From: Flavobacteriales bacterium
GTDB lineage: Bacteria > Bacteroidota > Bacteroidia > Flavobacteriales_D > Sanyastnellaceae
Assembly (NCBI GenBank): GCA_044354975.1
Contig: JBIKZA010000001.1
Location: 11,094 to 75,093, forward strand
Length of the DNA stretch: 64,000 bases
Direction: 5' to 3'
Below are positions 7,006 to 49,165 of this stretch, piece by piece. The notes under the pieces were generated by a model. It saw only the letters and a program-made list of their open reading frames with translations, made no database searches and was not told the DNA's origin. Both the position numbers and the translations under genes were made by a program. The first letter of the stretch is position 1, and every line of letters begins with the position of its first letter.

Positions 7006-7677
7006 ATGGCAGAAATAATAGAAGGTGGTGGAGGCCACGAAAAAGGCGGTAAAAAGAGACCCAAGAAGAGCCCGGTGCGCATGGACATGACACCAATGGT
7101 TGACTTGGCGTTCCTTCTATTGACCTTCTTCATCTTGGCAACCTCACTGAGCAAACCAAAGACACTGGAGATTGTCTATCCGAAAGATGTTGAAAATCCG
7201 GAGGATCAGACAAAATTGGATGACGATTTAGCTACGACAATTATTGTGGGTGAAACCGACGATCAAATTTTCTACTACCATGGAAAATTCAGAAAAGACA
7301 CCACCAAATTGGAGCCGTCAGATTTTTCTAAAGATGGTTTACGTGTAATGCTACTTGAAAGAAACAAACGAGTAGTAGAACAAGTAAATTCTTTGAAAGA
7401 TCAACAAAGAGATGAGTTGAGAAAGAGTAACACACGCGAAGATGACGAAAAAATAAATCTCCGATTTAAGGAGCTTATTGCAGACGCTTCGAACGATTCT
7501 CTTGCTCCTTTCGTAATTGTGAAAACAATGCCTACCACGAAGTGGAAGAATGTTGTGAATGCGATTGACGAGTTGAACATTACTAACGTGAAGAAGCGCG
7601 CCATCATGGATATGGAAGCGCGTGAAGCGTTGCTTTTCCTTTCACCAGAAAAAGTAGCGGAATTAAAATTGAAATGA
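7006..7677 (+). CDS. exbD: ExbD/TolR biopolymer transport protein (second copy)
   Basis: N-terminal motif MDMTPMVDLAFLLLTFFIL; follows exbB-exbD. Confidence 0.8.
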   Translation: MAEIIEGGGGHEKGGKKRPKKSPVRMDMTPMVDLAFLLLTFFILATSLSKPKTLEIVYPKDVENPEDQTKLDDDLATTIIVGETDDQIFYYHGKFRKDTTKLEPSDFSKDGLRVMLLERNKRVVEQVNSLKDQQRDELRKSNTREDDEKINLRFKELIADASNDSLAPFVIVKTMPTTKWKNVVNAIDELNITNVKKRAIMDMEAREALLFLSPEKVAELKLK

Positions 7678-15021: not shown

Positions 15022-16343
15022 TGGCAGCGTCAGGGAAACAGAACTTACAACTCGACTGGGGCACTATTGCGCTCTACGGGACGTTGGTTTTGTTCGGATG
15101 GCTTTCTATTTATAGCGCTGCGTTTAATCCGCTACTGCCAAGTCCGTTCACGTTTTCCGAAGAGTACGGAAAACAGTTGGTATGGATAGGGGCTTGTATC
15201 TTTTTAATCGTAGTCATCCTTTATTTAGACGCGGAGGTGTTCAATAAACTAGCCGTTTACATTTACTTCTTTTTTGTGCTTTTGCTCATGCTCGTCTTGG
15301 TCATAGGAAAGGAAGTAAATGGAGCGAAGGCGTGGTTTGGAATTGGTGATTTTGGAATTCAGCCGAGTGAGTTTTCTAAAATTGGCGTCGGGCTATTTCT
15401 GTCCAAATTTATTTCCAGCTCCGGTTTGCAGTTGAAGAATTTGCGAATGCGTATTCAGGCTTTTGCAATCATTGGATTACCGGCGTTTTTGATTTTGCTT
15501 CAACCCGATGTGGGTTCGTTATTGACTTTCCTTGCTTTCATTTTGGTGATGTATCGTGAAGGGATGTCGGGCACTGTCCTGATCGCAGGATTTGCCAGTG
15601 TGGTCATTGGAACTTTAAGTATTGTTATTGGCGCGGGCAGAACGACTTACCCTTATTTCGGAGAGATGAGTTCTATTTGGACTTTTATTGTTTCCCTTTT
15701 CGCGTTATCAATTCTTGCTTTGATTTTCGTTCGGAATTTTGTTGTCCCACGATCAAGAAGATTGCTTTATTCTGTGGTTGTCATCTCGATGGTGCTAGCC
15801 TCGAGTCTAGCTTTTTCGATTAACTACATCGTAGATAACGTGCTTGAAAAACACCACAAAGAGCGTATTTACGTTATGCTTTCACTTCCGGTTGAACGAC
15901 AAGATGCGACCTACAATTCCGAGATGGCGAAAATTACAGTAGGCTCCGGGGGATTAATTGGAAGAGGGTTTCATCAAGGACCAATGACCCAAAATAATTA
16001 CGTGCCTGAGCAATGGACCGACTTTATTTTTAGTGCAGTCGCAGAAGAGTGGGGATTCCTTGGAAGTGTAACTGTAATTCTTATGTTCTTCACCCTTATA
16101 TACCGATTGGTGGTATTGGCAGAGCGGCAACGTTCTCAATTTTCTAGGGTGTACGGCTATTGCGTAGCAGCAATCATTTTTATGCACCTCCTCATTAATA
16201 TTGGAATGGTGCTCGGGTTAGCGCCTATTATTGGTATTCCTCTGCCCTTCTTTAGTTACGGCGGATCTTCGCTTATGGCGTTTACGATTCTACTCTTCAT
16301 TATGATTCGTTTGGACGCTGAGCGGCTCAGCATCTTTAGATGA
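15021..16343 (+). CDS. rodA: SEDS-family peptidoglycan polymerase RodA
   Basis: 440 aa FtsW/RodA/SpoVE-type polytopic protein; TAATG overlap with mrdA. Confidence 0.9.
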   Translation: MAASGKQNLQLDWGTIALYGTLVLFGWLSIYSAAFNPLLPSPFTFSEEYGKQLVWIGACIFLIVVILYLDAEVFNKLAVYIYFFFVLLLMLVLVIGKEVNGAKAWFGIGDFGIQPSEFSKIGVGLFLSKFISSSGLQLKNLRMRIQAFAIIGLPAFLILLQPDVGSLLTFLAFILVMYREGMSGTVLIAGFASVVIGTLSIVIGAGRTTYPYFGEMSSIWTFIVSLFALSILALIFVRNFVVPRSRRLLYSVVVISMVLASSLAFSINYIVDNVLEKHHKERIYVMLSLPVERQDATYNSEMAKITVGSGGLIGRGFHQGPMTQNNYVPEQWTDFIFSAVAEEWGFLGSVTVILMFFTLIYRLVVLAERQRSQFSRVYGYCVAAIIFMHLLINIGMVLGLAPIIGIPLPFFSYGGSSLMAFTILLFIMIRLDAERLSIFR

Positions 16344-16413
16344 TGACCCTTCGGGATGACCACTTCGTGGATGACGCTGCGCGATGACCCTTTGGGATGA
16401 CGCTGCGCGATGT
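16339..16413 (+). repeat. mini-hairpin array, ATGA linker (5 units)
   Basis: tga|ccc-ttc-ggg|atga|ccac-ttc-gtgg|atga|cgc-tgc-gcg|atga|ccc-ttt-ggg|atga|cgc-tgc-gcg|atg. Starts on the rodA stop codon. Confidence 0.85.
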
Positions 16414-23742: not shown

Positions 23743-24537
23743 ATGAAGCAGTATCACGATTTGTTGCAACACCTTTTAGATAATGGTGTGAAGAAAGAAG
23801 ATCGCACAGGAACGGGAACTTACAGCGTTTTCGGACATCAAATGCGATTTAATTTAGCGGAAGGATTTCCGCTTATAACAACGAAGAAGCTTCATACACG
23901 AAGCATTTTCGTAGAGCTTTTGTGGTTTCTAAAAGGCGACACGAACATTTCTTATTTAAAGGATAACGGGGTTTCCATTTGGGATGAATGGGCCGATGAA
24001 AACGGGAACTTAGGTCCTGTATACGGCTACCAGTGGCGCTCATGGCCGAATCCAGACGGAACTTCAACCGATCAGATTGTGAATTTGGTAAACGGATTGA
24101 AGAATAATCCAAACAGTCGCCGACACATTGTTTCTGCTTGGAACCCTTCATTCATTGAGGACATGGCTCTTCCGCCCTGCCACTGTTTGTTTCAGTTTTA
24201 TGTGGCCGATGGAAAATTGAGTTGTCAATTGTACCAAAGAAGTTGCGATACATTTTTAGGTGTTCCCTTCAACATAGCTTCATACGCGTTGTTGGTTCAT
24301 ATGATTGCACAAGTGTGCGATTTGGAAGTGGGTGATTTTGTTTGGACCGGAGGAGATGTACATTTGTATTCAAACCACGTGGATCAAGCGAAACTGCAAT
24401 TGACTCGTGAACACCGCACGCTTCCAACCTTAAAATTAAATTCAGAAGTGAAAGATCTGTTTGCCTTCACTATGGACGACATTTCAATTGAAAACTACGA
24501 TCCGCATCCACACATTAAAGCCGCAGTTGCAATCTAA
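23743..24537 (+). CDS. thyA: thymidylate synthase
   Basis: 264 aa; DRTGTGT, active-site PPCH and full-length ThyA pattern. Confidence 0.97.
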
Positions 24538-25046
24538 TGGAAATTTCAGTAATTGCCGCCATGGGCGTGAATCGGGAGATTGGGAAAGACAACGATTTAA
24601 TGTGGCATCTTCCGAACGATATGAAGTTCTTCAAGGACACTACGAAGGGTCATCACATTATCATGGGAAGAAAAAACTACGAAAGCATTCCAGAGGCTTT
24701 TCGTCCGTTTAAAAACCGTGTGAATATTGTTTTATCTCGCGATAAAAATTACGACGCTCCAGGTTGTGTGGTGTTCGACGAACTGAGTCGAGCATTGGGT
24801 TTTTCGCGCGAAGGCGGAGAAACGGAAGTATTCATTATCGGCGGCGAGCAAATCTACGCTTGGGCTTTACGTGAAGGCTTTGTTCAGCACATTTATCTGA
24901 CGCATATTGAAGGGGAATTCTCTGGAGCCCATGCGCATTTCCCTGAGTTCGATGCGAGTTTATATTCGAGAGAGTTAATCTTGGAACAAGAGGTTGATGA
25001 GAAGCATGCGTTTGCTTTTAAAACGTTTAAGTACACTTTGGTTTAG
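24537..25046 (+). CDS. folA: dihydrofolate reductase
   Basis: 169 aa; IAAMG.NR.IG..N.LPW pattern variant and GRKTYESIP-like motif. TAATG overlap with thyA. Confidence 0.92.
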   Translation: MEISVIAAMGVNREIGKDNDLMWHLPNDMKFFKDTTKGHHIIMGRKNYESIPEAFRPFKNRVNIVLSRDKNYDAPGCVVFDELSRALGFSREGGETEVFIIGGEQIYAWALREGFVQHIYLTHIEGEFSGAHAHFPEFDASLYSRELILEQEVDEKHAFAFKTFKYTLV

Positions 25047-25280
25047 TTGCTTTGCAAGGTTCTACGAAAGATGCAATTATAAGATGCAAGCAAGATTCTT
25101 CGAAAGATGTGTTACAAGATGCTCCGCAAGATTCTTCGAAAGATGTGTTACAAGATGCTCCGCAAGATTCTTCGCAAGATGTGTTACAAGATGCTCCGCA
25201 AGATTCTTCGAAAGATGCCTTCGGCAAGTATTTCGTTAGCGTAGCTTCTTTTGAAAAATCTTACGAAGGATCTTTCAACA
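25047..25280. repeat. mini-hairpin array, AGA linker (15 plus-oriented units incl. a 36-bp higher-order repeat x3, then about 2 degenerate inverted TCT units)
   Basis: aga|ttc-ttc-gaa|aga|tgt-gtt-aca|aga|tgc-tcc-gca| repeated. Starts 1 nt after the folA stop. Centre is cttttgaaaaatctt at 25248-25262. Confidence 0.9.
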
Positions 25281-25283
25281 AAA

Positions 25284-25622
25284 CTATTTATTCTTCTTTG
25301 ATTTAGGCTTTACGAGGTCGAAGCTGTGTTGAACAAGTTCTCTCAATAACTTGTCTGAAACGTCGCTATTTGGAACGACAAGGTTCCAATGTTTTTTGCT
25401 GGTGTGATAACCGGGTTGAATGCCGTTGTATTCTTCACGAAGTTCGATTGCTCTTTCGGGGTCGCATTTGAGGTTGATTCCTTTTTCGAAGTTATCGAGG
25501 TTAACCATAGCGAAGATTTTATTTTCAATTCGAAAAACCAAAGCACTTTCGTCGAAGGGTAAATCGGAAGTTACCTCTTCACTAATGGCTTGACACGTTT
25601 CAAAAAAATCTTCTATGTTCAT
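25284..25622 (-). CDS. MmcQ/YjbR family DNA-binding protein
   Basis: 112 aa starting at MNIEDFFETCQ (ATG 25622, 1-nt overlap with the upstream stop); YjbR-like pattern. Confidence 0.7.
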   Translation of the reverse strand: MNIEDFFETCQAISEEVTSDLPFDESALVFRIENKIFAMVNLDNFEKGINLKCDPERAIELREEYNGIQPGYHTSKKHWNLVVPNSDVSDKLLRELVQHSFDLVKPKSKKNK

Positions 25623-29211: not shown

Positions 29212-29997
29212 ATGAAACTAACGCTGGAAAAAGACGGGCGACGCTATTCATTTCAAACCGAAAAAGGAATGGACCTTAGCATTTCTATGAATCCAAATGG
29301 TCCGCGCGCTTGGTACGTAGCGCCTATGCGCATTGAACCCGTGCGCACTGAACAATTCTTGGGTTCTGTAGCCGAAGGAGGGGCAGTGAATTTTCGTGAT
29401 GTGTATTTTAATCCACATGGACACGGCACGCACACGGAGAATGTGGGACATATCATTGATACGGATTTCCCCGTGGTGAATAGCATTGGGTCTTCGCATT
29501 TTATGGCGAAGCTGATAACGGTGGAGTTGATGAAACAAGATGCTATGCAAGATTCTACGAAAGATGTTTCACAAGATGCTTCGCAAGGGGATTGGGTAGT
29601 TAACGAGCAAAGTCTGGAGGGTTTTGATTTGAAAGTTGAAGCGCTTATTATTCGCACAAAACCGAATGATCATTCGAAAGTGCAGAGACAATACTCAGGT
29701 ACGAATTTTCCTTATTTAACAATTGGAGCTATGCAGCGTATTGTTGATGCGGGTGTTCAGCATTTGCTCATTGACTTGCCCAGTGTAGATCGCGAGGAAG
29801 ATGGCGGAGCGTTGGAGGCACATCATTTGTTTTGGAATGTTCCGGCAGAGCCGAACTTTCAGAAAACCATTACAGAGTTGATTTACGTTCCAAATGAAAT
29901 TGCAGATGGGACTTATCTGTTGAATTTGCAAGTTTCAAATTTCGCTAACGATGCTGCTCCGAGTAGACCTATGCTTTTTGATCTAGCGGAAGAATAA
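29212..29997 (+). CDS. cyclase-family (kynurenine formamidase-like) protein carrying an in-frame repeat insertion
   Basis: HGHGTHTENVGH metal-site-like motif and family-like C-terminal half. Contains the AGA mini-hairpin units at 29538-29587. Confidence 0.65.
   Translation: MKLTLEKDGRRYSFQTEKGMDLSISMNPNGPRAWYVAPMRIEPVRTEQFLGSVAEGGAVNFRDVYFNPHGHGTHTENVGHIIDTDFPVVNSIGSSHFMAKLITVELMKQDAMQDSTKDVSQDASQGDWVVNEQSLEGFDLKVEALIIRTKPNDHSKVQRQYSGTNFPYLTIGAMQRIVDAGVQHLLIDLPSVDREEDGGALEAHHLFWNVPAEPNFQKTITELIYVPNEIADGTYLLNLQVSNFANDAAPSRPMLFDLAEE
29538..29587 (+). repeat. mini-hairpin array, AGA linker, 4 units, inside a CDS and in frame
   Basis: aga|tgc-tat-gca|aga|ttc-tac-gaa|aga|tgt-ttc-aca|aga|tgc-ttc-gca|ag, encoding QDAMQDSTKDVSQDASQ. 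Confidence 0.85.
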
Positions 29998-33751: not shown

Positions 33752-35665
33752 ATGAAACCATTCTGCGAAGATTTATTTGGGTACAAGCGCATTAAAACGA
33801 GCTCAGTAACCATTGGTGAATTAACCATGGGCGGCGACGCGCCCATTCGTGTGCAGTCAATGACCACGGCCGACACCATGAATACCGAAGCAACCGTTGC
33901 CGAGAGTATTCGCATGATTGAAGCCGGTTGTGAGTTGGTGCGTATTACAGCTCCAAGTAAAAACGAGGCTGAAAATCTTCGCAACATTCGCGAAGAACTT
34001 CAAAAAGCGGGTTTTAACATTCCGCTGGTTGCCGACATTCACTTCACTCCGAACGCCGCAGAGATTGCAGCGCGCATTGTAGAGAAGGTTCGTGTGAACC
34101 CGGGGAACTACGCAGATAAAAAGAAGTTTGAGGAAATTGTTTACACAGATGAATCTTACGCTGCTGAATTGAAACGCATTCGCGACCGATTCATTCCACT
34201 TGTGGAAATTTGCAAAGAACACGGAACAGCGATGCGCATTGGAACGAACCACGGTTCGCTTTCAGATCGCATTCTTAGTCGCTATGGTGACACCCCTGAA
34301 GGCATGGTGGAATCTGCCATGGAGTTCATCCGCATTTGTCTCGATTGCAATTACAAGAATTTGGTTATTTCCATGAAAGCGTCTAATCCGCAAGTGATGG
34401 TGCAAGCCTATCGTTTGTTGGTTCAAACACTTTTGGAAGCGGGCGAAGTTTTTCCATTGCACTTAGGAGTAACAGAGGCGGGCGATGGAGAAGATGGAAG
34501 AATTAAATCTGCTATTGGAATTGGCACTTTGTTGGAAGACGGCATTGGCGATACCGTTCGTGTTTCATTGACCGAAGCGCCGGAAGCAGAAATGCCTGTA
34601 GCGAAATTACTGGTCGATCGTTACGCGAATAGAACTCTGGGATTACATATTCCGGCGGAAGAAATTCCAATTGATTTTTTCTCTTATTCAAGAAGATACA
34701 CACACGAAGTTTTAAATATTGGGGGAAAGAATGTCCCGCGTGTATTTGCAGATTATTCGAACCGCGAGTCGATTACTGCGGCTTCACTATTCGCAGTGGG
34801 ATATGCCTATTCAATAGATATGGACAAGTGGAATTTGTCTGATTCGGCTTGTGATTATTTGTTTGTTGGAAAGAACACGGTAAATTTTGAAATTCCCGGA
34901 ACCCTTGGTGTTGTCATGGAACACGCAACATGGCTTCAACATAAAAATAGAGACCGTCATTATCCAGTTTTATTTGCAAGCGAATACATCCAACCGAATG
35001 AACGTTCGGGTGAGTTGAATTTTGTTGAAGTAGAATTGGAAAATTTAACAGAAGAATTTTTATCTGTGTTGAAGGCAGATTCAACGGTTGTGTTGTTGTT
35101 GAAGTCTTCGCATGAGTATGTTGTGCAGCATAGAAGAACAGCTATTTTCAAATTGATGAATCACGGAGTGAATTGTCCCGTAGTTCTTTCTTCCACCTAC
35201 AACATCGAAGAAGAAGCATACACACTTTATTCTTCAACCGACGTAGGAGCCTTGTTGCTAGATGGATTAGGCGATGGAGTTCTTATTTCAAGCAGTCAAT
35301 CTTCTTTGGCGAAATCGAATGCGATTGCATTTGGAATTCTTCAAGCAACGCGCACGCGTATTTCAAGAACTGAATATATTTCTTGTCCAAGTTGCGGAAG
35401 AACATTGTTCGACCTTCAAGAAACCACGGCGAAAATTCGTTCGCGCACTTCGCATTTGAAGGGCGTGAAGATTGGAATTATGGGATGTATTGTGAACGGT
35501 CCGGGAGAAATGGCAGATGCCGATTACGGTTATGTTGGAACAGGTGTAGGAAAGATTACACTTTACAAAGAAAAGAATGTGGTGAAGAAGAACATTGACG
35601 AAGCGGAAGCTGTCGATGAGCTTATTTCACTCATCAAGGAATATGGCGATTGGGTGGAACCCTGA
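33752..35665 (+). CDS. ispG: 4-hydroxy-3-methylbut-2-enyl diphosphate synthase (long form)
   Basis: 637 aa; GcpE N-terminal TIM-barrel motifs, an inserted domain, and C-terminal CPSCGR..GCIVNGPGE Fe-S motifs. Confidence 0.93.
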   Translation: MKPFCEDLFGYKRIKTSSVTIGELTMGGDAPIRVQSMTTADTMNTEATVAESIRMIEAGCELVRITAPSKNEAENLRNIREELQKAGFNIPLVADIHFTPNAAEIAARIVEKVRVNPGNYADKKKFEEIVYTDESYAAELKRIRDRFIPLVEICKEHGTAMRIGTNHGSLSDRILSRYGDTPEGMVESAMEFIRICLDCNYKNLVISMKASNPQVMVQAYRLLVQTLLEAGEVFPLHLGVTEAGDGEDGRIKSAIGIGTLLEDGIGDTVRVSLTEAPEAEMPVAKLLVDRYANRTLGLHIPAEEIPIDFFSYSRRYTHEVLNIGGKNVPRVFADYSNRESITAASLFAVGYAYSIDMDKWNLSDSACDYLFVGKNTVNFEIPGTLGVVMEHATWLQHKNRDRHYPVLFASEYIQPNERSGELNFVEVELENLTEEFLSVLKADSTVVLLLKSSHEYVVQHRRTAIFKLMNHGVNCPVVLSSTYNIEEEAYTLYSSTDVGALLLDGLGDGVLISSSQSSLAKSNAIAFGILQATRTRISRTEYISCPSCGRTLFDLQETTAKIRSRTSHLKGVKIGIMGCIVNGPGEMADADYGYVGTGVGKITLYKEKNVVKKNIDEAEAVDELISLIKEYGDWVEP

Positions 35666-35823
35666 CGCAGAGCGTAGATGCTTTGCAAGATTCCGTTGGA
35701 AAGATGTTGCACAAGATTCCGTTGGAAAGATGTTGCACAAGATTCCGGAGGAAAGATACTTCGCAAAAATTACCTTTTGAAAAATCTTGCATAGCATCTT
35801 GTGAAACATCTTACGAAGTATCT
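35666..35823. repeat. mini-hairpin array, AGA linker (about 8 plus-oriented units, centre, 3 inverted TCT units)
   Basis: aga|tgc-ttt-gca|aga|ttcc-gtt-ggaa|aga|tgt-tgc-aca|... cttttgaaaaatctt (35774-35788) ...tct|tgc-ata-gca|tct|tgt-gaa-aca|tct|tac-gaa-gta|tct. Spans exactly from the ispG stop to the purK stop. Confidence 0.9.
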
Positions 35824-36964
35824 AGGATACAACCCTTACTTCTTTCAAGAATCGTCTGGCAATATCCTTCGCGTCTTCTAGATTCGTGTTGCACACCGTA
35901 ATGTGTCCCATTTTACGGAAGGGTTTGGTGTCTTCCTTTCCATATAAATGAATATAAGCACCTTCGGTGTGAAGGACGTCTTCTATGTTTTCGTAGCGCG
36001 CTTTTCCTTCAAATCCTTTTTCACCCAAGAGGTTAATCATAACAGCTGGAGTGCGAAGTCCTGTGCTGCCTAACGGCATGTTCAAGATCGCACGAAGATG
36101 CATACCGTATTGCGAAACGAAGCATGCTTCAATGGTGTGGTGGCCGCTGTTGTGCGGACGAGGAGCGATTTCATTCACCAATAAATTTCCATCTTCGGTG
36201 AGGAATAATTCAATGGCTAATAAACCCACGTGTTCGAGTTTGTTGGCAATCTCGGTTGCGATTTTTTTCGCGTTGATTTCTATTTCAACGTTCACGTTGG
36301 CAGGAGAGAAAATGAATTCTACTAAGTTGGCTTCCGGATTGAATTCCATTTCCACCAAAGGAAAAGTAGCCAGTTCTCCGCTTTCATTTCGAGCAACAAT
36401 AACAGCCAGTTCTTTTACGAATGGAACGAATTCTTCCAATACGCTGGGCGCATTGAAGGCCGATTTGAATTCCGCTACCGTGCGAAGTGGAGTTACTCCT
36501 TTGCCGTCGTATCCGCCTTTGCGAAGCTTCTGCATGAACGATCCCTCATCTTTAAACAACATCGCATCTTCTGTATTAGCGATCAGGTGGAAAGGAGCCG
36601 TCGGAATGTTGTTCGCTGTGTAAAATTGTTTTTGAAGACCTTTGTCTTGAATGATGCGAAGGGCTTGTGGTGTTGGGAAAACTTTCTTTCCAAGTCTTTC
36701 CAATTCTTCGAGAGCTTCAATGTTCACGTGTTCAATTTCAATGGTCAGAACATCAACTGTTTTTCCGAAATCGAGTACGGTTTGATAGTCGTTAAAATTT
36801 CCAACAACGAAATTATTCGCAAGGTCAGCGCAAGGTGCATTTGAAGAAGGGTCTAAAACAGAGATATGAATATTGAAGTTAACGGCTTCTTGAATAAGCA
36901 TTCTTCCTAATTGTCCACCACCTAAAATTCCGAGTTTAGTGGTTAGGTCTATCGTGTGATTCAT
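35822..36964 (-). CDS. purK: 5-(carboxyamino)imidazole ribonucleotide synthase
   Basis: 380 aa ATP-grasp protein; N-terminal LGILGGGQLGRM and PurK-like sequence throughout. Confidence 0.92.
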   Translation of the reverse strand: MNHTIDLTTKLGILGGGQLGRMLIQEAVNFNIHISVLDPSSNAPCADLANNFVVGNFNDYQTVLDFGKTVDVLTIEIEHVNIEALEELERLGKKVFPTPQALRIIQDKGLQKQFYTANNIPTAPFHLIANTEDAMLFKDEGSFMQKLRKGGYDGKGVTPLRTVAEFKSAFNAPSVLEEFVPFVKELAVIVARNESGELATFPLVEMEFNPEANLVEFIFSPANVNVEIEINAKKIATEIANKLEHVGLLAIELFLTEDGNLLVNEIAPRPHNSGHHTIEACFVSQYGMHLRAILNMPLGSTGLRTPAVMINLLGEKGFEGKARYENIEDVLHTEGAYIHLYGKEDTKPFRKMGHITVCNTNLEDAKDIARRFLKEVRVVS

Positions 36965-47324: not shown

Positions 47325-47798
47325 TTATGAAATCTTTCTTTCGTTGGGAGACATTTTCTCCAACCCCTGAAAGAAATTGCGAATCACCTGATTGTTGCAT
47401 TCGACATACTGTCGTTGCGTGGGGCTGCGAAAGAAAGCACTGAGTTCGTGCTTGCTCATTTTCATTTCGGCAAGCGACAAGATTTGAATAATATCCTCGT
47501 CAATTAAATTCAGCGCTATGCGCATCTTTCGGAAGATGAGATTATTCGTCAAGCGTTTCTCTGGAACCGGCAACGGACCGTCTTTTCGTCCGCGTTTATG
47601 AATGATAAATCCGTTTAGAAAAATGGAAAGCATCTCATCATTAATATCGAGATACTCTTCGTGATCTTCTTTCTTCAACCAATCACTCACATCGGATCGA
47701 GTAACCATAACATCTGTCAAAGCGAAAATGTCTATCATCTGCTGATCAGAGAAGTCATAAATAAATCGAATGCGACGGAAGATGCTGTTGTTGGTCAT
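47325..47798 (-). CDS. DUF1456 (YehS-like) protein
   Basis: 157 aa; two tandem halves resembling E. coli YehS (..NSIFRRIRFIYDF.. / ..NNLIFRKMRIALNL..). Confidence 0.8.
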   Translation of the reverse strand: MTNNSIFRRIRFIYDFSDQQMIDIFALTDVMVTRSDVSDWLKKEDHEEYLDINDEMLSIFLNGFIIHKRGRKDGPLPVPEKRLTNNLIFRKMRIALNLIDEDIIQILSLAEMKMSKHELSAFFRSPTQRQYVECNNQVIRNFFQGLEKMSPNERKIS

Positions 47799-47831: not shown

Positions 47832-47996
47832 GAATGCGTTGCGAAGGCGAATGGCTTTGCGAAGGCAACAAGCATTGCGAGGGTGAATTCTTCACGAGGG
47901 TCCTTCGGACGAGGGTTGCAAGCAACGAGGGTCTTCGACTTTCGCAATTACGCATCCCGATAGCTATCGGGAGGAATAAAGCCGAAGGTTTTCAAT
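47832..47996. repeat. mini-hairpin array, GAAG/GAGG linker (plus-oriented) followed by inverted GGAAT-type units
   Basis: gagg|gtgaa-ttc-ttcac|gagg|gtcc-ttc-ggac|gagg|gttgc-aa-gcaac|gagg|gtc-ttc-gac| then cccgatagctatcggg and aaagcc-gaa-ggtttt. Confidence 0.85.
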
Positions 47997-48804: not shown

Positions 48805-48969
48805 ATGGAAAAAACGTCATTACAAAATAGCACCCCAATCCCTGCAGAGGTTATTTCAACGCCTATTCCCACTTCCGAAAAATTTCAGGAAGCGAAAAAA
48901 AGATTGCCAGAAACACTGGCAAAACTTAAAGCTTTTAATGAAAAGCAAAAGCTTGAGCAGAAGAGTTAG
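48805..48969 (+). CDS. possible small ORF (54 aa), hypothetical
   Basis: MEKTSLQNSTPIPAEV..KLKAFNEKQKLEQKS read by hand. Its stop codon is the first nt of the GAAT array. Confidence 0.3.
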   Translation: MEKTSLQNSTPIPAEVISTPIPTSEKFQEAKKRLPETLAKLKAFNEKQKLEQKS

Positions 48970-49165
48970 AATGTCTTCGACGAATGTGCAAGCACGAATG
49001 TTGCAGGGCAACGAATGTTCTCTGAACGAATGCCTGCGGCGAATGTCTTCGACTGTCATTCAACAACGCAGTTCTAATTACGAAGTAGGAATTATGAAAT
49101 AGGAATTACTTAGTTCCAATTACGCAGTAGGAATAAAACCGAAGGTTTTCCAATAACGCAGTTAA
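48969..49165. repeat. mini-hairpin array, GAAT linker (6 plus-oriented units) then inverted GGAAT/CCAAT-linked units (about 6)
   Basis: gaat|gtc-ttc-gac|gaat|gtgc-aa-gcac|gaat|gttgc-agg-gcaac|gaat|gttc-tct-gaac|gaat|gcc-tgc-ggc|gaat|gtc-ttc-gac ... aat|tac-gaa-gta|ggaat|tat-gaa-ata|ggaat|..|aaaacc-gaa-ggtttt|ccaat|aac-gca-gtt. The last unit overlaps the rlmF stop. Confidence 0.88.

Follow-up and report, generated by a model that had tools for sequence, protein, structure and literature searches.

Introduction

The BOX elements of Streptococcus pneumoniae are modular intergenic repeats, predicted to fold, in which the copy number of one internal module varies; their modules measure 45-60 nucleotides (nt) and their ends are fixed as boxA and boxC. 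Rickettsia palindromic elements (RPEs) occur as single in-frame insertions of 100-150 bp in conserved genes, to which they add a tolerated peptide, and the ToxI antitoxin RNA of type III toxin-antitoxin systems is built of 5.5 copies of a 36-nt repeat. Repetitive extragenic palindromic sequences (REPs), with the related bacterial interspersed mosaic elements (BIMEs) and REP doublets forming hairpins (REPINs), are short hairpin units of 20-40 bp that carry a conserved tag at one end, GTAG or CGTC, and are dispersed between genes in tandem or inverted pairs; they abut open reading frames (ORFs), can supply a TAG stop codon and in some copies lie inside ORFs (PMC3733652, PMC3116915). Here we describe an array of minute hairpins, joined by the constant linker AGA, which fills the junction between the convergent genes folA and yjbR in a 64,000-nt stretch of DNA (hereafter the window) from a Flavobacteriales bacterium (GenBank assembly GCA_044354975.1, contig JBIKZA010000001.1, positions 11,094-75,093). 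The reading we favour, with a probability of roughly 0.55, is that this junction holds a non-coding palindromic repeat element acting at the DNA level, a REP/BIME-like hairpin minisatellite that changes by slippage at its linkers. The array is one locus of a dispersed repeat family with several dialects, which goes beyond what the first-pass annotation, made from this window alone, had shown.

Among the systems described, this family comes closest in behaviour to REPs, BIMEs and REPINs, with which it shares short hairpin units with a conserved tag at one end, dispersed and mostly extragenic copies often arranged as inverted pairs (six arrays in 64 kb), ends that supply TAG codons and some copies within ORFs. 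It is not filed here as a REP, though, because the unit size and the GTAG/CGTC tag do not agree: the units measure 8-13 nt with stems of 3-5 bp, only the composite element forms a long imperfect palindrome, and the tags are AGA, ATGA, AAGG, CGAATG, CGAGGGT or ATCAAT. The hairpin sequences, moreover, vary within one array while the linker stays constant, and no gene for a REP-associated tyrosine transposase (RAYT) occurs among the 57 longest non-overlapping ORFs of the window, which were compared with Pfam and proved to be ordinary housekeeping or secretion genes or to have no Pfam match. As in variable number tandem repeats (VNTRs) or minisatellites, there are head-to-tail units, here of 12 and 36 nt, with in-register deletion junctions and length alleles among near-identical genomes, both at this junction and as 4-amino-acid steps in a cyclase gene. 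An ordinary VNTR, however, is a single locus with one unit, whereas here a structured grammar recurs at many loci, in several dialects and with inverted arms.

The likeness to BOX elements, which is one of description and not of sequence, lies in the modular intergenic design with a variable internal module; BOX modules are larger, their ends are fixed and their host belongs to a different phylum. The array found inside the cyclase gene (29537-29590) behaves as an in-frame palindromic insert and thus recalls the RPEs, although these are not arrays growing in 12-nt steps. A tandem 36-nt repeat in about five copies also brings ToxI to mind, but the window holds no toxin gene, the period is not conserved, the loci are many and some arrays lie in ORFs. 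A type III toxin-antitoxin system was accordingly rejected, the neighbours being folA and yjbR and the 57 scanned ORFs having no ToxN/AbiQ/CptN-type domain, and so was a clustered regularly interspaced short palindromic repeat (CRISPR) locus, since a constant stretch of 3-7 nt alternates here with a variable palindrome of 7-13 nt, where a CRISPR would have repeats of 24-48 nt and unique spacers of similar size, and no Cas domain is encoded in those ORFs. Known RNA families were excluded as well, with no Rfam 15 match to the array at the gathering score. Mini-hairpins of the d(GCGAAGC) type resemble the centre hairpins of the family, ACGCGAAGCGT or AGCGAAGCT, and most unit loops, which read C-GNA-G on the TCTT strand; their known natural examples are single hairpins at phage priming or promoter sites, not dispersed arrays (PMC13037366, PMC3201870). 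A literature search, which returned REPs, REPINs, TAACTGA heptamer repeats and mini-hairpin DNA, yielded no prior description of this family.

Architecture of the folA/yjbR junction

The junction is bounded by folA (24537-25046, + strand), which ends in a TAG codon at 25044-25046, and by yjbR (25284-25622, - strand; YjbR/MmcQ family, PF04237), which converges on it and ends in a TAG at 25284-25286. The 237 nt from stop to stop are wholly occupied by one repeat structure, and direct reading of the sequence bears out the initial description of an AGA-linked mini-hairpin array filling the folA/mmcQ convergent junction. The forward arm (25048-25229, + strand) comprises 15 units, exactly the number first counted, each of them a T...A-closed mini-hairpin of 8-11 nt followed by an AGA linker, which is replaced by AGG in the first unit and by AGT in the last. 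The hairpins start at 25048, 25060, 25072, 25085, 25096, 25108, 25120, 25132, 25144, 25156, 25168, 25180, 25192, 25204 and 25216. The copy-number-variable part (25096-25203, + strand) consists of three near-identical copies of a 36-nt trimer with TTC, TGT and TGC stems, TTCTTCGAA-AGA, TGTGTTACA-AGA and TGCTCCGCA-AGA (ttcttcgaa, tgtgttaca and tgctccgca, a trio whose threefold repetition had been recognised from the start); the copies lie at 25096-25131, 25132-25167 and 25168-25203, the third with a single A>C change at 25175.

The polarity flips in a centre (25230-25246) that holds an AGC-GTA-GCT mini-hairpin at 25238-25246. The first-pass annotation had put this symmetry centre one unit further right, at cttttgaaaaatctt, which is already the first inverted unit. 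The counterpart of the centre hairpin at other loci is AGCGAAGCT or ACGCGAAGCGT. The inverted arm that follows (25247-25283, - strand) has three degenerate units with a TCT linker and GAA or AAC loops, which read on the + strand as TCT followed by TTTGAAAAA, TACGAAGGA and TTCAACAAA, and it agrees with the degenerate inverted continuation toward the mmcQ stop, with TCT linker and GAA loops, that had been described. Together with the inverted arm, the last forward units make up a long imperfect hairpin (25177-25285), whose 42-nt arms, 25177-25218 and 25244-25285, are 76% complementary.

The element ends coincide with the stop codons of both genes: the left end is the folA TAG (25044-25046, + strand), read as TAG-T-hairpin, and the right end is the yjbR TAG (25284-25286, - strand). 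The same start, TAG-N-hairpin, is seen at the yjbR end, at the end of purK (35822-35824) and 9 nt past the ispG stop. The ends are of the form NTAG, with GTAG solely on the ispG side. Tandem Repeats Finder reports a period of 36 nt with 4.6 copies (91% matches, score 256) and a second period of 12 nt with 11.4 copies. The pattern AAGAT-N7-AAGAT-N7-AAGAT is matched 15 times in the window, where shuffles would give 0.03.

The unit hairpins

The unit hairpins are real. Of the 88 distinct units collected from all loci, 55 form at least three nested Watson-Crick pairs from their ends, as compared with 5.9 +/- 2.3 when the interiors are shuffled. When the 46 distinct nine-nt units are aligned, the 3-bp stem is paired in 92% of cells (68.5 +/- 2.7% in shuffles) and two-sided changes occur in 33 cells (11.8 expected), and neither value was reached in 500 shuffles; sliding the register lowers the pairing to 26-59%. 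The stems are of many types, TGC/GCA, TGT/ACA, TTC/GAA, TCC/GGA, TAC/GTA, TTT/AAA, TTCC/GGAA and TGCC/GGCA, and G.U pairs are found in 2 of 138 stem cells. An asymmetry of G.U pairs was considered as evidence for an RNA strand and set aside, wobble pairs being too few.

Three-base loops read TNC in 19 of 35 cases on the AGA-linker strand, the complement of which is GNA closed by a C:G pair. Most loops of the TCTT-linker strand thus read C-GNA-G, the motif of an unusually stable DNA mini-hairpin. The motif d(GCGNAGC) is known as mini-hairpin DNA, whose stability requires the C:G closing pair and is missed by nearest-neighbour models (PMC13037366, PMC3201870). In line with this, standard folding gives no sign of stability for the A/T-rich tandem part of type A (z = +1.2 as DNA; +0.1 and +0.7 as RNA). 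The G+C-richer hairpins of the ATGA dialect fold as DNA with z = -2.8 and -2.9, and the terminal long hairpin with z = -2.3 and -2.0. Folded as RNA, the segment 25198-25290 reaches -21.6 kcal/mol on the + strand (z = -2.4), where a U-rich stretch follows it, and -22.9 kcal/mol on the - strand (z = -2.8). The whole junction folds as RNA no better than shuffles (z = +0.32 and -1.09), a scan for intrinsic-terminator consensus returned none in the junction, and a promoter scan, limited to sigma-70-type signals and hence weak for Bacteroidota, returned none upstream of or within the array.

Variation at the junction in relatives and populations

GTDB species whose FolA is 89-96% identical keep the folA/yjbR arrangement and differ in what lies between the genes. 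AGA-linked arrays are found with a higher-order period of 35 nt (L018), 36 nt (L022) or 37 nt (L016, L024, L027 and L068) and with unit lengths of 11-14 nt. Elsewhere the junction is filled by arrays with AAGG/CCTT linkers, expanded chiefly on the inverted arm (L012-L015, L019 and L032), or by a dialect of C...G-closed hairpins with ATGA linkers that is unrelated to the AGA array (L011, L017, L021 and L028), and one or other of these arrays is carried even by species with FolA 93-96% identical. A single unit is present in L023, and none at all in L030 and L031 (FolA identity 63-65%). The array at this junction is dispensable and quickly replaced.

Ten metagenome contigs encode a FolA identical to that of the window, nine of which span the junction and were compared together with the window. 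Their junctions measure 162, 186, 198/201, 234 and 270 nt, which amounts to between one and four of the 36-nt trimers; the variation in unit number that the first-pass annotation had proposed to look for is therefore seen as five length alleles. The same internal variant pattern was assembled independently from different samples (L001, L003 and L006; the window, L004 and L007). The allele of L005 is a hybrid in which two different units are fused exactly at the AAGAT linker, as expected of in-register slippage or recombination. Copy number thus varies in natural populations, although short-read assembly could distort some of the counts.

A dispersed family of arrays

At least six arrays, with four types of linker (AGA, ATGA, CGAGGGT and CGAATG), are present in the window. 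An ATGA-linked array of five C...G-closed hairpins (16339-16412, + strand) starts at the stop codon of the rodA/ftsW gene. A second AGA array fills the convergent ispG/purK junction (35676-35824), with a forward period of 26 nt (14+12) and four inverted units; its end is the purK TAG (35822-35824), and it gives rise to a phantom ORF of 83 amino acids (35650-35901). Two further arrays are family-like, with hairpins unrelated in sequence: one with the linker CGAGGGT (47878-47932, + strand), intergenic and upstream of the start of a minus-strand DUF1456 gene (47328-47798), and another with the linker CGAATG (48969-49045, + strand), which comes after a TAG (48967-48969) and precedes a converging methyltransferase gene. 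A 22-nt motif, AGGAATAAA(G/A)CCGAAGGTTTTC, which forms an AAACC-GAA-GGTTT hairpin, occurs at 47972-47993 and 49129-49150, some 40-85 nt downstream of the CGAGGGT and CGAATG arrays, respectively.

The remaining AGA array (29537-29590, + strand) lies in frame (QDAMQDSTKDVSQDASQ) inside an ORF for a cyclase or kynurenine-formamidase-like enzyme (PF04199; 29212-29997). Leaving the insert aside, homologues of this enzyme are 89-97% identical; their lengths run from 253 to 312 amino acids and differ mostly in steps of four, at one position. The variant P0106 encodes QDLPQDLSQNLETVAS, which reads as in-frame inverted, ATCTT-linked units. A sequence search against solved structures, intended to place the insert in a loop, gave no match. 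Assembly is disturbed at this gene: in L214 (3802-4056) the scaffold of a related species is interrupted by a run of N because its cyclase array is so long, and contig L215 starts inside such an array (1-65).

Beyond the window, other metagenome contigs bear several arrays (L206 and L213) and further arrays occur in L149 and L210; among the arrays of these four contigs, one has 23 units and one belongs to an ATCAAT dialect. ATCAAT-linked units are seen at L213 6315-6357 and L215 13410-13457, each followed by inverted (ATTGAT) units. The layout of forward arm, centre and inverted arm is shared by 25047-25286, 35676-35824, L206 10455-10680, L206 5896-6016 and L213 8392-8658. The order of units TTC>TGT>TGC is common to unrelated AGA-type loci, so that these go back to one shared 36-nt module and are not of independent origin.

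As far as the sampled loci go, the family is restricted to this clade: a generic array detector returned none in about 55 loci of more distant Flavobacteriales (FolA identity <=65%). A metagenome-wide scan for four AAGAT units at 12-nt spacing retrieved mostly unrelated single-unit simple repeats, with L206 and L149 as the only family members, and the 36-nt trimer pattern of type A had zero matches in viral contigs. A candidate at 7397-7442, with four AAGA motifs at 11-15-nt spacing in an ORF of the ExbD family (7006-7674), was rejected because the segments between the motifs are not hairpins; it probably encodes a Lys/Glu-rich stretch of the protein and does not belong to the family.

Coding potential

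The junction array is non-coding. With a 12-nt period and no stop codons, four overlapping frames stay open: an ORF of 84 amino acids with a TTG start and QDSSKDVLQDAP repeats (25052-25306, + strand), which public gene callers report as a hypothetical protein of 72, 84 or 96 amino acids, and three others at 24994-25239 (+), 25107-25244 (+) and 25027-25227 (-). The first-pass annotation had taken such ORFs for phantoms kept open by the period, and no support for a gene has come to light. That a small protein is made after all, from the 84-amino-acid ORF or from a Cys-rich minus-strand ORF of 66 amino acids, is hardly credible to us: the frame is open in this genome and gene callers report its product in several metagenomes, but the start is TTG, Pfam matches neither this ORF nor the 83-amino-acid one at ispG/purK, and a comparison with 5.8 billion proteins retrieved only 19 matches, all ORFs of 46-95 amino acids devoid of domains, the 16 that were read being translations of arrays at other loci. 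Sister species have periods that are not multiples of three, so that the peptide is frame-shifted between repeats, with the 37-nt period cycling the translation through all three frames, and stop codons interrupt all six frames in L018, L022, L026 and L012. Identical DNA units, moreover, recur with a 26-nt period at 35676-35824. A small protein gene is thus already contradicted by period, frame and stop codons, with neither reading frame nor peptide conserved; the 35-, 36- and 37-nt periods, the other linkers and the missing arrays of related species argue likewise against a conserved coding gene at orthologous junctions, the finding that would have overturned the first-pass annotation. Rfam 15 at permissive thresholds produced chance-level microRNA matches only (E >= 1) for the array region, and at the gathering score two tRNAs only for the whole window.

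Origin of the array and alternative explanations

The element consists of forward and inverted arms around a small centre hairpin with a GNA loop, the arms being composed of modules of about 12 nt, each with a constant purine linker of 3-4 nt (AGA) and a variable mini-hairpin with a stem of 3-4 bp, and its ends provide the TAG stop codons of both converging genes. The forward arm has been amplified in steps of 12 and 36 nt, most likely by slippage during replication or by unequal recombination, in either case in register at the linkers, a process that hairpins formed in single-stranded DNA may help. The copies belong to a lineage-specific family sharing an ancestral 36-nt trimer; they have spread between loci and settle wherever the host tolerates them, be it at the ends of genes, elsewhere in intergenic DNA or in frame in a putative surface loop of an enzyme. 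Action on DNA and not on RNA is suggested by the near absence of G.U pairs from the stems, by the GNA loops and by the 4-amino-acid steps of the array within the cyclase ORF, one variant of which also seems to carry inverted units in frame. Orientation points the same way, since across loci it is independent of transcription. The arms of the window lie in sense orientation directly after stop codons; the arrays of L210 and L206 9889-9967 are antisense to both co-directional flanking genes, and those of L213 9134-9403 and L206 10455-10680 stand between divergent genes. Given the same behaviour between genes and within an ORF, in either orientation, a DNA-level repeat is the simplest reading. 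A host function would not be required, and any effects on termination would presumably be incidental; the hairpin may have such effects where folA and yjbR converge, because the segment 25198-25290 is predicted to fold at -21.6 and -22.9 kcal/mol.

Several observations weigh against a DNA-level minisatellite. In some arrays all copies have one and the same linker but hairpins with no sequence in common (CGAATG six times at 48969-49045; GATGAC five times at 16339-16412; and a constant 6-7-nt linker with unrelated hairpins also at 47878-47932), a pattern that duplication or slippage followed by neutral drift does not easily yield. Nearest-neighbour folding predicts no stability, as DNA or as RNA, for the A/T-rich mini-hairpins of type A, so that the argument for their stability draws on published data on GNA triloops. 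No mobilising enzyme was found, the 57 scanned ORFs having no transposase, Y1_Tnp, HUH, ToxN/AbiQ or Cas domain. Part of the copy-number variation could be an artefact of short-read metagenome assembly, and not every array is unstable, as the rodA array has the same length in nine contigs with identical RodA. Where linkers are constant and hairpins unrelated, either the linker may be under constraint or selection, or some generating mechanism may copy it and make a new palindrome. This leads to a tentative alternative, in which this would be an undescribed class of repeat, with an array-specific linker of 3-7 nt and unrelated mini-hairpins (C-GNA-G loops on one strand), made or maintained by an active lineage-specific mechanism on single-stranded DNA that goes beyond slippage; an enzyme of HUH/Y1 type or a primase-like one, or templated fold-back synthesis, may be involved. 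If true, an active mechanism of this kind would jointly explain the colonisation of gene ends, the replacement of arrays and the in-frame expansion in an ORF.

An RNA-level role in cis, as a bidirectional terminator or 3'-end stabiliser of the folA and yjbR mRNAs in the manner of E. coli REPs, seems unlikely to us. It would account for arms that sit at or near stop codons in sense orientation to the incoming gene (folA, yjbR, ispG, purK and rodA) and for a segment, 25198-25290, that folds better than shuffles on both strands ahead of a U-rich stretch on the + strand, but the consensus terminator scan of the junction is blank, RNA folding predicts no stability for the tandem part (z = +0.1 and +0.7) and the stems are nearly devoid of G.U pairs. 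Relatives manage with one unit or zero (L023, L030 and L031), and unrelated dialects have replaced each other at this very junction. Arrays also run antisense between co-directional genes, lie between divergent ones and stand in frame in a conserved enzyme ORF, where long inserts speak against a terminator because it would be harmful there.

Equally doubtful to our minds is a mobilised REP-like element, in which an enzyme acting on single-stranded DNA (RAYT, a Y1 HUH transposase of IS200 type or similar) would recognise linker plus hairpin and copy or insert modules, even though a RAYT-like enzyme is the obvious candidate for spread between loci. Such an enzyme would explain both this spread and the constant linkers, and it would suit one 36-nt trimer being common to unrelated loci, the arrays with identical linkers and unrelated hairpins, and the REP-like tag plus hairpin, REPIN-like layout, TAG-supplying termini and copies in ORFs (PMC3733652, PMC3116915). 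What speaks against it is the lack of a transposase, Y1_Tnp or HUH domain in the scanned ORFs and of the type-A trimer pattern in viral contigs, together with units of 9-13 nt instead of the 20-40 bp of a REP and tags that are neither GTAG nor CGTC and differ between arrays in sequence and length (3-7 nt), all of which a single enzyme would struggle to recognise. Far less probable still is a processed repeat RNA, either an array like a type III antitoxin or an AAGAU sponge for an RNA-binding protein: a 36-nt period in 4.6 copies and a constant single-stranded motif between hairpins are what it would predict at this locus, but the period elsewhere is 35, 37 or 26 nt, arrays lie inside ORFs, no promoter was matched by the sigma-70-type scan (a weak point for Bacteroidota), no ToxN/AbiQ-type domain is found in the scanned ORFs and the many different linkers would need as many binding proteins.

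Two further ideas were tried and rejected. A replication-strand bias was considered for the single-arm arrays of the window and both longer arms, all of which lie on the G-rich strand; arrays at other loci ignore the local GC skew. An extension of FolA by stop read-through, in which the frame after TAA in the type-A species reads DSSKDV, was dropped because of in-frame stops directly after folA in the window and after rodA and ispG.

The family adds one more grammar, a constant short linker with a covarying mini-hairpin in several dialects, to the interspersed repeats of bacteria, and its host belongs to an abundant group of uncultured freshwater Flavobacteriales in which we have not found such repeats reported. 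Being hypervariable in nature, the arrays could serve as strain markers in time series from lakes. They also have practical consequences, since they break short-read assemblies (one scaffold gap and one contig terminus inside an array) and are turned by the gene callers of public databases into "hypothetical proteins" of 46-96 amino acids. The in-frame expansion in a conserved enzyme offers a natural experiment on the tolerance of a protein to a disordered insertion and, if a dedicated mechanism indeed maintains the linkers, this would be a new activity on single-stranded DNA.

Neighbouring genes and contig titles

Upstream of folA lies thyA (23743-24537, + strand), whose stop codon overlaps the start of folA (ATGA, 24534-24537), an arrangement that fits translational coupling. 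A PorP/SprF gene, also on the - strand, likewise converges on thyA and folA. Several contigs with FolA loci of Flavobacteriales type bear titles that do not fit them: L012, L016, L033, L086 and L088 are titled "Chryseobacterium gleum", L043 "Polynucleobacter meluiroseus" and L051 "Comamonadaceae". These titles of metagenome-assembled genomes probably reflect mislabelled or contaminated bins.

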